This document shows positions 7,137-16,751 of a stretch of 64,000 nt of DNA, one piece after another (positions within the stretch are counted from its first letter, which is position 1; each line of letters opens with the position of its first letter). The notes below the pieces were generated by a model, which searched no databases, had not been told where the DNA came from, and was given only the letters and a program-made list of their open reading frames with translations. The stretch comes from Nannocystales bacterium. GTDB taxonomy: Bacteria > Myxococcota_A > Polyangia > Nannocystales > Nannocystaceae. Location of the stretch: contig JBOEGF010000019.1 in the NCBI GenBank assembly GCA_050633305.1, positions 96,001-160,000 on the forward strand, written 5' to 3'. A program made the translations under genes and the position numbers.

Positions 7137-8177
7137 TCATGGGGCGGGCGAGAGTGCGAACCCCGAGCCCGACGTCGGTATTCCTTCGGGCGTTAGACCG
7201 CGAAGGAGGGACGGGAGGTCCTGACTGCGCTTGAGGGTCGCGAACAACCCGGCGTAGACCTCGGACGCCGGCGCTGCGAGCCGTAGCCACTGTTTGCACC
7301 GTCCCAGCGCGACCGCCTCCGTGCCCCCACCATCGAGGATGCGCTGCGCATAGTCTCGGAGTCGCTCGCAGAGCCAGATCGGGTCGAGCTCGGGATCCCG
7401 GTGTCCGCGCAGCTGCCTGAACAGGCGGGGCCGACCCATGGCGCCACGCCCGATCATGAACGCGGTGCAGCCGCTGACCTGCTGACAGGCCTCGACAGCC
7501 TCGACCGTGTTGAGGTCGCCATTGGCCACGACGGGCATGCGTACCGCCTCACGGGCGCGCCCGATGCTGCCCCAGTCGACGGGCGGCCGATATCCCTGCA
7601 TGCGAGTCCGGGCATGGATCGTCAGCCATGACGCGCCGCCCTGCTCGATCGAGCGGGCGATGTCCTCCACGTGGTCGGCGTTCTCCCAGCCGAGCCGGAT
7701 CTTTACGGTGACTGGGATGGAGTCGGGGACCGCCTGGCGTACTGCCGTGGTGATCGCTTCCAGACGGTGCGGGAACTGTAGAATTGTCGCGCCTCCATCG
7801 CTCTTGTTGACCGTCTTGGCCGGGCAGCCGAAGTTGATGTCGATCCCTGGAGCTCCCATCTCGACACATCGAGCGGCCGTCGCGGCCATCGGCTCCGGTT
7901 GTCCTCCGAGTAGCTGAACGAAGACCGGTACACTCGAGGCTGTCGTTCCGCCGGTCTGTACTTCGGGGCAGTGCTTGAGGATGACCTTGGGCACCACGGC
8001 CATGCGGGTGACCCGGACGAACTCCGACACACACATGCTGATGCCGCAGGCGCCACCGTGCAGGCCCGTGAGCAAGTCGCGATAGACCCAGTCGGTCACG
8101 CCGTCCATCGGCGCGAGTGCTGCGAACAGACCCGGTGCGCCCGGGGTGCGAGCGACGCGGGGGTCGATGACGGTCAC
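7137..8177 (-). CDS. dus: tRNA-dihydrouridine synthase (DusC-like)
   Basis: LAPMDGVTD, IDINFGCPAK, TVKIRLGW, IHART, ANGD and MIGRGA motifs; GTG start overlaps the upstream TGA. Confidence 0.93.
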   Translation of the reverse strand: MTVIDPRVARTPGAPGLFAALAPMDGVTDWVYRDLLTGLHGGACGISMCVSEFVRVTRMAVVPKVILKHCPEVQTGGTTASSVPVFVQLLGGQPEPMAATAARCVEMGAPGIDINFGCPAKTVNKSDGGATILQFPHRLEAITTAVRQAVPDSIPVTVKIRLGWENADHVEDIARSIEQGGASWLTIHARTRMQGYRPPVDWGSIGRAREAVRMPVVANGDLNTVEAVEACQQVSGCTAFMIGRGAMGRPRLFRQLRGHRDPELDPIWLCERLRDYAQRILDGGGTEAVALGRCKQWLRLAAPASEVYAGLFATLKRSQDLPSLLRGLTPEGIPTSGSGFALSPAP

Positions 8178-8458
8178 AGCGTGAGCTCGAGCTGGCCGTC
8201 GAGCTTGGGGGACCACGGGACCAGGAGGAACTCGTAGGTGCGGGATGGGGTCGCCCCGGCCCGGCTCCGAACCTTGCGGCAGATGAAGCCGGCGGGGGTC
8301 AGTCGCCGAGCTTCGAGCATCGCCCAGATCTCATGCTCGGTGTCCTGGGCCGCATACCCGTTGTGCTCGAGGGTATCCACGACGGAGCCCATCGCCATGC
8401 CTTGGTCGGGGGCGGATTCGACGAGGGCGACGATCGCCTGGCGGAGGGCTGAGCGCAT
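8174..8458 (-). CDS. Small hypothetical protein, translationally coupled to dus
   Basis: GTGA overlap with the dus start; protein-like composition; start uncertain. Confidence 0.7.
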   Translation of the reverse strand: MRSALRQAIVALVESAPDQGMAMGSVVDTLEHNGYAAQDTEHEIWAMLEARRLTPAGFICRKVRSRAGATPSRTYEFLLVPWSPKLDGQLELTL

Positions 8459-8508
8459 GGACGGCGGAGCATCGCGTGGGCGCCCCTCCGGCGCAAACGG
8501 AACTTTGG

Positions 8509-8547
8509 TGAAAATGCTGTTGACTTTCATTTTCATTGTGGCAAAGT
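8509..8547 (+). promoter_or_regulatory. Fur-box-like operator overlapping a sigma70-like promoter
   Basis: TGAAAATG (8509-8516) N11 CATTTTCA (8528-8535) perfect inverted repeat; TTGACT at 8520-8525; TGn-CAAAGT at 8539-8547; AT-rich patch in GC-rich DNA. Confidence 0.6.
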
Positions 8548-8554
8548 GGCTCTC

Positions 8555-8678
8555 GTTGGAGCCCGGTCACGAACGTCTTCGTTCGGCTCCTTGCAGGCAT
8601 CACCGGGCGAAAACGCCAAATGGCCAGTCGGCCCAATCGTAGCGTGGTGCGTCGCTGCGGTTGGGCCGACGTTTTTTT
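8555..8678 (+). ncRNA. Candidate small regulatory RNA
   Basis: Lies between a promoter-like element and a + strand intrinsic terminator while both flanking genes are on the - strand; internal stems ggagcc/ggctcc, gaacg/cgttc, gcccggt/accgggc. Confidence 0.5.
8627..8678 (+). terminator. Rho-independent terminator
   Basis: 18-bp stem gtcggcccaatcgtagcg / cgctgcggttgggccgac (two G-U pairs that work only on +), then T7 at 8672-8678. Confidence 0.85.
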
Positions 8679-8715
8679 GCGGCGCGGGGGATCTCCGAGA
8701 ACCCGGGGAGCGCGC

Positions 8716-9771
8716 CTACGATTTGGCGGGGAGGTTGCCGGGCGCTTGGAGCTCGTCATCTTGCGCCGGGAACCACCGACTCGCGACGCGGATCGCGTTG
8801 GTCGCCGCGCCGAGGCGGAGGTTGTCGCCAGCAACCGTGAGGCACACGGTCCTTCCGCTCTCATCGCGGGGGTCGAGACGCAGTCGGCCGGCCAGCGTTC
8901 GGTCTCGATCGTGCACACACGCAAGCGCGGTGAGTCCCTCGCCCACCGGGCCTTTGTTCACGCTGACGAACGGCGCAGCGCTCGTCTGTTGTAGCGCGGC
9001 TTCGATCTCAGCCAGAGGCGCGGCGCGTTCGAGCTCGAGCCACACGTTCATGAAGTGCCCGATCGCCACGGGGACACGACAGCACTGTGCGCTGACCTTG
9101 AGGTGAGCCGCATCCAAGATCTTGCGGCTCTCCTTCATCAGCTTGCGCTCCTCGGAACTGAAGCCAGTTTCGTCGGTCTTTCCGCTATGCGGGACGGTGT
9201 TGCCAACGTACCCGGCTGGGTCGAGCTGCGACCCGACGCGGTTGGGCTCGGCATACCCCGCGCGAGAATCCTCGAGGAAGCCATCGAGAGCACCGATGCC
9301 GGCGCCACTGATCGCTTGGTACGAGCTGATCGCGACCGAGGTCAGACCGAACGCATGGGCCAAGGGAGCCATGGCCATCGTAAAGGGGATGGTGGTGCAA
9401 TTTGGGTTGGCGACGAGTTGGGTTTTCTCGCTCACGACCCCACAGTTGACGCCCGCCGAGACCAGCGGAACGCTCTCCTCCATCCGGTAGGTGTTGCTCT
9501 TGTCGACGACCTTGTACCCAAGCTCGACCAACCGCGGGACGTAGCGCTTGCTGTGCTCGTCATCGAGCGCGACGAGGGCGAGGTCCCCGCGCGGCGCGTT
9601 GTCTTCCTCGAGTTCAGGCGCAGCGAGCACGTCGAAGGTTTCCCCGGCGTGCTCCAGTTGTTTTCGTCGGCTCGCAAACCCGATGATCTCCGCCGTCGGC
9701 CAGGCGCGGCGGATCAGCGTGATGGACTCGCGGCCGACGAGGCCTGTGGCACCAAGGATACAGATGCGCAT
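8716..9771 (-). CDS. asd: Aspartate-semialdehyde dehydrogenase
   Basis: GATGLVG Rossmann motif; ANPNCTT catalytic Cys; SYQAISGAG; RVPV..GH; DNLRLGAATNA. Confidence 0.93.
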   Translation of the reverse strand: MRICILGATGLVGRESITLIRRAWPTAEIIGFASRRKQLEHAGETFDVLAAPELEEDNAPRGDLALVALDDEHSKRYVPRLVELGYKVVDKSNTYRMEESVPLVSAGVNCGVVSEKTQLVANPNCTTIPFTMAMAPLAHAFGLTSVAISSYQAISGAGIGALDGFLEDSRAGYAEPNRVGSQLDPAGYVGNTVPHSGKTDETGFSSEERKLMKESRKILDAAHLKVSAQCCRVPVAIGHFMNVWLELERAAPLAEIEAALQQTSAAPFVSVNKGPVGEGLTALACVHDRDRTLAGRLRLDPRDESGRTVCLTVAGDNLRLGAATNAIRVASRWFPAQDDELQAPGNLPAKS

Positions 9772-14179: not shown

Positions 14180-14651
14180 GCTTCTACTGTACGCGGTTCC
14201 TTGGGGACGGTCGGAGCGCACCTCGAGCGAAACGGTTCGGGCGCGTTGTGGTGGTGCGCTGCGTAGAGGGCGCCAACTCGGGCCGCGGTCGTGTTGGCCC
14301 CGCCGTGCTCACCTCGCGCAGGGCGAGGGCAGAGCATTCACCGAGGTCGAATCCGGTCTCGACGCAGTGCGGTTCCCGATGGTCCGCGGCGCTGTCGCAC
14401 GCGGTCGCGGTTGCCCGAAACCGGCTGTTTGCGACTGCTGGAGCGGTCCTAGCGAGGACGGGGCTGCTAGCTCACGTCCCGGATCGGCGCACCTTGCCCC
14501 CGGGCGTGAGCACCCACGCAAGCCGCGCGGATGCCGTGGGGTGCTCCATGGTGCAGGTTGTGGCATTCTCCGCGCGCCTCGCCCCCGATCCTCGGGTCTT
14601 GCGGGGCTTTTGCAGACACGTTCTTCAGACGCCTAAAGGCAAAAAGCAGCC

Positions 14652-16751
14652 ATGGTCGACCTCGCCAACACCCGCAACATTGGGATTTCCGCCCACATTG
14701 ACTCCGGAAAAACGACGCTCACCGAGCGCATCCTTTTCTACACGGGTCGCATCCACAAAATCGAGGAAGTCCGTGGCAAGTCCGGCGTCGGCGCTGTCAT
14801 GGACAACATGGAGCTGGAGCGTGAGCGCGGCATCACCATTCAGTCCGCTGCCACCTTCGTGACGTGGGGTCAGACCCACATCAACATCATCGACACTCCC
14901 GGACACGTCGACTTCACCGTCGAGGTGGAGCGCGCGTTGTCGGTGCTCGACGGCGCCATTCTCGTTCTCTGTGGGTCCTCCGGTGTGCAGTCACAGTCGA
15001 TCACGGTCGACCGTCAGATGCGTCGCTACAACGTCCCCCGCGTCGCGTTCATCAACAAGATGGACCGCACCGGTGCCGACGCGTACCGCGTGACGAGCCA
15101 GCTTCGCGAGAAGCTCAAGCACAACGCCGCGATGGTGACGATCCCGATCGGTGCCGAAGACGACTTCGACGGCATCATCGACCTTCGTATCCGCAAAGCC
15201 TTCTTCTTCGACGGCGACAACGGCGAGAACCTCCGCGAAGAGGAGGTCCCCGAGGACATGAAGGAGAAGACCGAGGAGATGCGCAACAAGCTCGTCGAGA
15301 CGGTTGCCGACTTCGACGACGCCATCATGGAGAAGTTCCTCGAGGGCGAGGAAGTCTCGGCCGAAGAGCTGAACCCGGTCATTCGCAAGGCCACGCTCTC
15401 CCTCGACCTCACGCCGGTGTTCTGTGGCTCCGCCTACAAGAACAAGGGCGTCCAGGTCTTGCTCGACGGCGTCGTCTCGTACTTGCCCAACCCCACCGAG
15501 GTGGAGAACAAGGCATTCGAGATCGCCGGCGACGGCAAAGAGACCGAAGTGGTCCTCGCTACCGACGACGAGAAGCCCATGTGCTCGCTCGCGTTCAAGC
15601 TCGAGGACGGCCGCTACGGACAGCTCACCTATGTCCGCATCTACCAGGGCAAGGTCACCAAGGGCATGTCCATCTACAACACGCGAACCGGCCAGAAGGT
15701 GAAGCTGGGTCGCATCGTCCGGATGCACTCCGACAAGATGGAGGACATCGAGGAAGCCGGCTCCGGCGACATCATCTCCATGTTCGGTGTCGACTGCGCG
15801 GCGGGTGACACGTTCACCGACGGGCAGGTCAAGTACTCGCTGCGTTCGATGTACGTGCCCGCGCCCGTCATCGAGTACTCGCTCGAGCCCAAGGACAAGA
15901 CGAACCTTTCGAACTTCTCCAAGGCGCTCAACCGCTTCTCGAAAGAGGACCCCACCTTCTCGGTGCGTCGCGACGAAGAGTCCGGCGAGACCCTGATCGC
16001 GGGCATGGGCGAGCTTCACCTCGAGGTCTACATCGAGCGGATGAAGCGCGAGTACAAGGTCGAGACCATCGTCGGTGAGCCGCAGGTTCGGTACCGCGAG
16101 ACCATCCAGAACGAGATCCCGTTCGCGTACACCCACAAGAAGCAGACCGGTGGCTCCGGTCAGTTCGCGAAGATCGGCGGCACCATGCGTCCGCTGACCG
16201 AGCCCGAGTCCGAGGATGAGATCTACCGATTCGTCGACAAGATCGTCGGCGGCATCATCCCTCGCGAGTACATCCCCTCCTGTGACAACGGGTTCCAGCA
16301 GGCGATGGCTCGCGGTGTGGTCATCGGTTTCCCGGTCGTGAACGTGGAGATGGAGCTTTCCGACGGTGGCTTCCACGCGGTGGACTCCAGCGACATGGCG
16401 TTCCAGATCTGCGCCCGAAACGCCTTCAAAGAGGCCATGCGTGCCGCCAAGCCGGTCGTGCTCGAGCCCGTCATGAAGGTTGTCGTCGAGACGCCCGAGG
16501 AGTTCCAGGGCGCGGTTCAGACCATGCTCATCCGTCGCCGTGGACTCATCAACGGGTCCGAGACGGCCTACGGCACCACCGCCGTCGACTCGAACGTCCC
16601 GCTTTCCGAGATGTTCGCCTTCTCGAACGAGCTTCGTTCCGGAACGCAGGGCAAAGCCGAGTTCACGATGGAGTTCGCGAAGTACGACCCCGTCCCGCAG
16701 AGCGTCCAGCAAGAGCTGGCTGAGAAGTACAAGGATCGCCAGAAGGGCTGA
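14652..16751 (+). CDS. fusA: Elongation factor G (spd/mtEFG1-like subtype, outside the str operon)
   Basis: [52 protein letters not shown] and HAVDSS motifs; strongly biased codons. Confidence 0.98.

Follow-up and report, generated by a model that had tools for sequence, protein, structure and literature searches.

Our data point to a small RNA of about 125 nt, encoded between the dus operon and asd of an uncultured myxobacterium, that is very probably a real, Fur-repressed transcript. As far as its sequence tells, it is probably an Hfq-independent analogue of RyhB that evolved independently and uses two seeds, and not a member of the RyhB family. The window, i.e. the whole stretch of 64,000 nucleotides under analysis, corresponds to C19:96001-160000 of the genome G000, and G000-G006 are seven genomes of one uncultured myxobacterial genus. 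For this locus, the initial annotation had proposed a Fur-type box, a promoter of its own, a conserved non-coding structure and a terminator, all of which gave positive results in silico.

In the mechanism that we propose, iron-loaded Fur would block the promoter of the RNA, and upon loss of iron the RNA would be made from around position 8554. Seed A (core CUCCUUGC) would then cover the Shine-Dalgarno (SD) sequence of the sodB and rubrerythrin mRNAs, and the terminator loop GUGCGUC would kiss an SD-proximal GRCGCAC in a contact of 6-7 pairs, located on or just upstream of the SD (acnA, sdh, rubrerythrin, iscS). Translation would be blocked, resulting in less superoxide dismutase, aconitase, succinate dehydrogenase and rubrerythrin, and perhaps also in less of the Isc machinery. 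We consider this mode of action on the targets, by seed A and the terminator loop, to be likely, and the regulon appears to be small. The elements of the locus are compiled in Table 1.

Table 1. Predicted elements of the small RNA locus and its neighbours, in positions of the window
Feature	Position	Strand	Remarks
Divergent 94-aa gene	8174..8458	-	first gene of the dus operon; homologue in 67/72 family genomes
Promoter-like motif of the divergent gene	8468..8496	-	TTGCGC-17-GATGCT; 10 bp short of the Fur array, outside the RNA unit
Three overlapping Fur-type boxes	8507..8537	.	19-mers at 8507, 8513 and 8519 with 12.7, 13.2 and 18.6 bits; contains the 8-11-8 repeat
-35 element TTGACT	8520..8525	+	buried in the Fur boxes; invariant in 5 full homologues and G001
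-10-like element CAAAGT	8542..8547	+	CA...T kept; spacer 16-17 bp
Predicted small RNA, ~125 nt	8554..8678	+	start placed 6-7 nt past the -10, where the first stem begins
5' domain	8554..8615	+	stems 8554-8557/8612-8615 and 8561-8567/8602-8608 enclose a small hairpin (~8569-8585) and seed A
Seed A GCUCCUUGCAGGCAUC	8586..8601	+	largely unpaired anti-SD stretch with the core given above; predicted partners: sodB and rubrerythrin start regions
Intrinsic terminator	8627..8678	+	18-pair stem 8627-8670, then U7 (T7 8672-8678)
Terminator loop	8645..8653	+	seed B GUGCGUC 8647-8653; predicted partners: acnA, rubrerythrin, sdh and iscS start regions
asd	8716..9771	-	converges on the RNA 3' end; Pfam Semialdhyde_dh and Semialdhyde_dhC

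Fur-type operator, promoter and the divergent gene

The elements described in the initial annotation were recovered in place: the two arms of the inverted repeat, TGAAAATG (8509-8516) and CATTTTCA (8528-8535), are separated by 11 nt, TTGACT, TG (8539-8540) and CAAAGT stand where described, and the flanking Dus, 94-aa and Asd genes are all encoded on the minus strand. A search of the 11-Mb genome that tolerated 2 mismatches found no second copy of the 8-11-8 repeat. Its interpretation as a Fur box holds insofar as the site is of the Fur operator type, but the 8-11-8 repeat itself does not have the geometry of a Fur box; it arises from three 19-bp matrix hits spaced at 6 bp, whose outer half-sites provide its arms. 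The matrix was derived from the other palindromic sites of the genome with the candidate itself left out (consensus ATTGAAAATCATTTTCAAT), and in the genome scan with this leave-one-out matrix the candidate box scored 18.6 bits, rank 14 of 47 sites with at least 13 bits.

To characterise these sites we scanned 70 of the 84 called genes around 17 regions. Behind the other sites we found i) HmuY, three imelysins, two di-haem oxidoreductases, DUF1513 and a siderophore-interacting protein and ii) a flavodoxin reductase, PepSY-TM, an ExbB-type protein and a ferritin-like protein, and because of this gene set we assign the motif to Fur and not to Zur or PerR; many unrelated or unknown genes also adjoin the Fur-type sites of the genome. 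Three Fur-family genes are present, one of which is closest to the iron Fur models, yet below their cut-offs. The candidate Fur protein is encoded at G000:C24:99788-100150. The three-box array is kept in all RNA homologues in silico. Judged from the sequence, the box is a Fur-type operator that overlaps the promoter of the predicted RNA.

Other Fur-type sites had neighbourhoods of their own. Four boxes lie amid genes for a flavodoxin reductase, DUF2271, DUF3570, a redoxin, a di-haem oxidoreductase and an RCC1-repeat protein (L054, G000:C10:550001-566000), a cluster which is likely an uncharacterised iron-uptake island. The box of rank 4 is found where a small gene begins, and downstream of this gene come a DUF692/MbnB-type iron enzyme and a DUF2063 gene (L050, G000:C11:91025-93048). 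Besides, cobalamin riboswitches (RF00174, above the gathering score) are found in G002 (L433:1647-1779, plus strand) and G004 (L416:1239-1370, minus strand), each about 130-150 nt from a Fur-type box and on the side away from the gene at the other side of the box.

Concerning the promoter, the -10 reads CAGGCT, CAGACT, CAGAGT or CAAGAT in homologues and is decayed to CGCGTT in G001, where the RNA body is lost. The 'extended -10' of the initial annotation is to be split: CA...T is kept in the homologues, but the TG is not kept at that position. At the 9-of-12 threshold of our promoter scan, 8000-9200 contained 0 promoter-like sites. The layout with the -35 inside the box (TTGACTTTCRTTTTCA, 1 mismatch allowed) was present in 29 of 72 family genomes, compared with 2 matches of the reversed control in all of them, and many of the 30 loci read have an apparent coding start directly downstream.

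An explanation that does without a functional RNA would have the Fur array regulate the divergent 94-aa gene or the dus operon, with the hairpins terminating or stabilising the asd transcript. The layout gives it some credit, since 10 bp separate the array from the divergent -35, the asd stop is followed by the hairpin after 46 nt, and G001 has kept the box but not the RNA body. However, the divergent gene, widespread as it is (67 of 72 family genomes), has a promoter motif of its own in 25 of the 30 family loci, as against 0 of 30 control windows; this motif stops 9 nt ahead of the ATG, which makes the gene near-leaderless, and the box stands before the gene in only 5 of the 30 loci. We therefore do not ascribe the box to this gene, and the concern that it controls only the gene at 8458 found no support, as 25 of 30 loci lack it. 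In G001, moreover, decay has set in at the -10 and at the outer box, which scores 4.7 bits. The U-tract, the G-U pairs and the -10 spacing are functional only on the plus strand, and an asd terminator would not require the conservation and compensation seen in seed A and the 5' stems. Taken together, an array without an RNA is very unlikely.

An extension of the divergent gene in frame through the box (MKMKVN...) was discarded, as by eye the frame is not kept in G006. The 94-aa protein matched no family above cut-off; unnamed look-alikes stand at 0.90 and a DsrD-like lead at 0.89. In G004, where nothing of the RNA is left, the region directly behind the asd stop contains a long inverted repeat that spans both start and promoter of the 94-aa gene (L010:1772-1815).

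Structure, conservation and distribution of the predicted RNA

The z-score of folding is -5.5 for 8554-8678 as a whole and only -2.0 for its portion upstream of the terminator. In a structure alignment of five sequences 98.1% of cells are paired, and 10 of 32 pairs are changed on both sides; this number was reached by 1 of 500 shuffles and slid controls gave 0-3, with the qualification that counts of compensated pairs are inflated by relatedness, G003 and G005 being near-duplicates. Helices 1-3 of the 5' domain are paired in 100%, 100% and 92% of cells with 2, 2 and 1 compensated pairs, and the terminator stem, whose sequence differs among species, in 98.8% with 5 compensated pairs. Seed A is identical in four of the five homologues and carries an extra U in G006, and GUGCGUC is invariant in all five while the terminator stem varies freely. 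Over the whole RNA, identity to G000 amounts to 76-90%, compared with 41-67% at four-fold sites of the neighbouring asd and dus. This pattern argues that the unit is under selection for structure and for two single-stranded stretches, and that its terminator loop is a probable, conserved seed, a role that had escaped the initial annotation.

The 18-pair hairpin with its T7 was confirmed as the sole terminator-like site in 8000-9200. Because shuffles of this region give 0.6 +/- 0.7 such sites, one terminator alone is not beyond chance; the locus is, since its 8-11-8 repeat is unique in the genome and the unit is conserved above the neutral rate. The claimed preference of the hairpin for the plus strand is borne out by two U-G pairs and by energies of -37.5 kcal/mol on the plus and -28.2 kcal/mol on the minus strand.

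A small peptide, or a REP-like or mobile repeat, has next to no probability as an explanation of this unit. Short sense ORFs are present, and GTAG/GTGG, a motif of REP elements, precedes the loop. Nevertheless, no combination of start and frame is common to the five homologues, which also removes the conserved peptide that the initial annotation had named as an alternative, the unit is single-copy in the genome, and the loop motif stays at control level genome-wide. Hairpins with this loop are not enriched elsewhere in G000 either, 9 of them being found versus 5-15 for ten control hexamers. On the same grounds, i.e. the single-copy unit and the control frequency of the loop, a REP origin of the loop was rejected, and so was an IRE-like cis hairpin in mRNAs, the loop hairpin not being enriched elsewhere in the genome.

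In G003 and G005, three further hairpins follow downstream, which have unrelated stems and the same GUGCGUC loop, the last one being followed by a U-tract; four loops in these two genomes thus face one in the other three homologues. Ten of the 11 loops read GUGCGUC and one GUGUGUC, a variant that still pairs by wobble. The extra hairpins (L075 and L080; G003:C30 ~14600-14780 and G005:C191 ~7330-7480) contain purine-purine mismatches in the stem, a few pairs beneath the loop. Hairpins 1 and 2 of G005 are separated by a stretch that includes a degenerate copy of seed A (GCUCC-GCC-UUGCAGGC), a hint that the 3' half of the RNA was duplicated.

Such an array opens up the possibility that the RNA is real and Fur-repressed, and that its loop binds a protein, either as a CsrB-type decoy or as ligand of iron-free aconitase, the complements in mRNAs being incidental or secondary. 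Multiplied loops are typical of protein decoys, and the four hairpins of G003 and G005 present the same apical GUGCGUC on unrelated stems. There is also a precedent for terminator loops acting without pairing, as those of three sRNAs in E. coli are reported to act on fepA, probably in this manner (PMC11979758). Against a protein ligand speak the control level of the same hairpin loop elsewhere in the genome and its exact complement at the acnA and rubrerythrin starts across the genus. Besides, the loop is not CAGUGN, the loop motif of the iron-responsive element. We therefore regard protein binding as the main function of the loop as rather unlikely, and return to base pairing below.

Full syntenic homologues were found in G003, G005, G006 and one metagenome contig (L040). 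G001 keeps the box and has lost the -10 and the RNA body, G002 contains a decayed remnant, and G004 has nothing left; a relocated copy was found in none of G001, G002, G004 and G018. In our tree (13 rows, four protein pieces, FastTree only, one weak node, no clade test) G003/G005 branch deepest, and G001, G002 and G004 fall inside the RNA-bearing clade, which suggests that the RNA was gained in the ancestor of the genus and lost up to three times. Outside the genus, blastn against 60 relatives gave only one weak 30-nt match, and a covariance model run on 72 family genomes, with 49 candidates scored per genome, gave one match of 29.6 bits without box or seeds. The exact promoter-plus-seed pattern hit 3 loci among all GTDB species, and a metagenome pattern hit 8 loci, 1 true and 7 chance matches. 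Within the limited sensitivity of searches outside the genus, no other genus has the RNA, and three of the seven genomes of this genus have lost it, a distribution that had escaped the initial annotation. The hfq gene (PF17209) was not found in any of five genomes (72-94% complete), and the same profile was positive in 5 of 14 control genomes.

Predicted targets

Both seeds were fixed from the conservation of the RNA before the target scans, and classic iron-sparing targets matched at per-gene backgrounds of 0.2-3%. For the region -40..-1 of 8838 genes called by a simple gene finder, the backgrounds are 0.45% for GACGCAC, 3.1% for RCGCAC and 0.16% for GCAAGGAG. On a panel of eight genes from classic RyhB-type operons (acnA, sdhC, sdhA, sdhB, sodB, bfr, iscS, nuoA), strict seeds matched two genes (background 0.6% per gene, P ~0.001) and looser seeds four (background 3.2%, P ~7e-5); the latter figure is partly post hoc, and only the strict one comes near a prior test, because the loose seed was widened after rubrerythrin and sdhA had been seen.

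For sodB, the best NCBIfam match is the Fe-type, below its cut-off. GCAAGGAG covers the SD in G000, G001, G002 and G004, and GCAAAGGAG does so in G006, where the extra A of sodB matches the extra U of seed A. Cognate seed/sodB pairs reach -20.7 and -18.4 kcal/mol, compared with -16.9 and -13.7 kcal/mol for the respective non-cognate pairs. sodB is the only switch among 16 GCAAAGGAG sites in G006. The covariation amounts to one event, an A inserted into an A-run, close to which G004 carries a further inserted A; by a rough estimate, such a match would arise by chance in one of five to ten cases.

For the terminator loop, GGACGCAC lies directly before the acnA start in six of seven genus genomes and in 0 of 23 loci from other genera, many of which read GGAGCA at that place. 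In G002 there are three near-identical acnA copies on different contigs (L192, L304, L305), possibly due to assembly duplication, all with GGAAGCAC instead of the loop-complementary site. At rubrerythrin, G[AG]CGCAC is found just 5' of the SD in all five genus genomes with the gene (it was not found in G003 or G005), and a comparable site in 2 of 26 others. The loop site is followed directly by AUGCAAGGAG in G000, and given this antiparallel order one RNA could grip both sites with its two seeds. sdhA has the same order of sites with a weaker match to seed A. Across all four RNA-bearing genomes and G004, the position of the sdh loop site differs: G000 and G006 have it before sdhA, G003 and G005 have it before sdhC, and the RNA-less G004 has none. 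For iscS, the scan of G000 showed GCGCAC at -7. Chance sites in non-iron genes were less stable (pilO 1/6, bactofilin 3/6).

A rubrerythrin-like gene of G000 stands in one row with genes for a GlpC-like Fe-S protein and DUF3501 (L127:2785-5290; G000:C18 ~740785-743290, minus strand), and it has matches in 56 of 72 family genomes, with 77-99% identity across the full-length matches in most.

The evidence on the targeting expected of a RyhB analogue is mixed: complements in iron-enzyme mRNAs and one compensatory indel between sRNA and target speak for it, and iron genes show no enrichment genome-wide. In whole-genome pairing energies, 228 iron-motif genes were not enriched (p = 0.60), and the single-genome energy ranking was discarded as uninformative. 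From a pre-fixed panel of 26 E. coli iron-related genes, the 17 orthologues gave 1 match, as did 21 non-iron genes. GCAAGGAG is found upstream of 14 genes, 6 of them iron-related, with one site inside coding sequence and three operon-internal, two of which encode Gly-Lys-Glu and did not switch in G006; the enrichment of seed A sites (5/13 versus 1/34 controls, p = 0.004) falls to 2/10 versus 1/34 (p = 0.12) without the three operon-internal sites. The bipartite pattern returned five genes (rubrerythrin, sdhA, a VWA protein, an HlyD protein and one unknown) versus 4-16 for control hexamers; sodB and sdhA were also picked up by one of these controls, whose sequence overlaps that of the real motif. 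Pairing of rubrerythrin with the G006 seed gains nothing from the C-to-A change in that genome.

Several candidates were dropped: korB and cytochrome b, whose sites are Gly-Lys-Glu codons of the upstream gene without a switch in G006; an NfuA-like gene with its site within coding sequence; actA and actF, as the sites in the Act operon are not conserved; and cox subunit I, kept in 4/4 but encoding Asp-Ala-His. The xdh Mo subunit, hemerythrin and DOPA dioxygenase were candidates at the level of G000.

These data also bear on a reading in which a real Fur-repressed RNA pairs with other targets, or only with sodB, and the sites at acnA, rubrerythrin, sdh and iscS owe their retention to something else. 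In its favour, and against our own reading, the RNA-less G001, G002 and G004 retain most sites (sodB 3/3, rubrerythrin 3/3, acnA 2/3), start regions are conserved anyway, with conserved 7-mers in 16 of 28 genes and in 6 of 10 with non-coding upstream DNA, and iron genes show no overall enrichment. It has to explain, however, that two seeds defined beforehand both match classic iron-sparing targets at the low backgrounds given above, and that the sdh site shifted from one gene to another among the RNA-bearing species and is missing from G004. We consider this reading unlikely and prefer the iron-enzyme mRNAs as targets of seed A and the terminator loop.

Relation to known iron-sparing RNAs

With RyhB of enterobacteria and PrrF1/PrrF2 of Pseudomonas, the predicted RNA shares a Fur box over a sigma70-type promoter, a short stand-alone transcript, an intrinsic terminator and predicted targets among Fe enzymes, and sodB is a target of RNAs of this type. 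The same is reported for sdh and acnA (PMC2964681), and RyhB acts on isc (PMC9973013, PMC12533949). RyhB and PrrF need Hfq (PMC9410917). In contrast, no hfq was found here, the terminator loop contains one of two separate seeds, and Rfam searches returned nothing near the gathering score for the locus, with no RyhB or PrrF match up to E = 10, nor up to E = 5 for the loci of three relatives. Owing to the lack of homology and of Hfq, we do not place the RNA in the RyhB/PrrF family.

Common targets without common ancestry are described for RyhB, PrrF, FsrA and IsrR (PMC9410917), and the independent origin likewise connects our candidate with the non-orthologous iron-sparing sRNAs IsrR (Staphylococcus), FsrA (Bacillus subtilis) and MrsI (Mycobacterium), whose targets, such as aconitase (PMC9410917; PMC11317140), are among those predicted here. 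IsrR is Hfq-independent and has several single-stranded seeds, some of them in loops (PMC9410917), and FsrA uses a C-rich anti-SD motif (PMC9410917; PMC11317140). The RNA described here differs from these by phylum and sequence, by GUGCGUC, which is neither C-rich nor anti-SD and sits in the terminator loop, and by its confinement to a single genus with loss in three of seven genomes.

Another parallel is OxyS of E. coli, which is not known to be iron-regulated. On fhlA, its terminator loop pairs with the initiation region, and another part of the RNA binds a different site of this mRNA (PMC11979758); here, the SD is flanked by both sites, and iron enzymes are the predicted targets. In myxobacteria, Pxr and MXnc1 of Myxococcus xanthus are sRNAs of an Hfq-less species that contact SD regions as well, and the targets given in the available text of the preprint are developmental or motility genes, without mention there of a link to iron (bioRxiv 10.1101/2025.09.11.675593). 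The RNA described here gave no Rfam match. In the available part of PMC8538405, Pxr is the only myxobacterial sRNA named, beside an ncRNA survey. The statement of the initial annotation that no such RNA was described for this lineage agrees with our searches: neither Rfam nor the literature, with most subscription journals outside the coverage, yielded an iron-sparing sRNA of Myxococcota or deltaproteobacteria.

The authors of the IsrR study expect that Fur-controlled transcripts keep being recruited for iron sparing (PMC9410917). Iron-sparing sRNAs arose independently in several phyla, and ours, if true, would add a case that is young and independent of Hfq, offers precisely defined pairings and a natural allele swap (sodB of G000 versus G006), and employs a terminator loop as seed; it reaches no further than one uncultured genus, and the function is of a known kind. 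A more far-reaching scenario, which we put forward only tentatively and hold to be less probable than its failure, is that a two-handed RNA was invented within this Hfq-less genus, its anti-SD seed and terminator loop clamping both sides of the ribosome binding site (rubrerythrin, sdhA), that the terminator-loop seed was multiplied to the four-hairpin array in one branch, that seed and sodB changed together in one species by a single inserted base, and that the RNA disappeared from three species. If so, seven genomes would allow the origin, tuning, amplification and loss of a RyhB-like regulator to be traced.

As a minor observation on this myxobacterial genome, flagellar hook genes (flgD, flgE and flgG-like) were noted at L132 and L376 (G000:C15).
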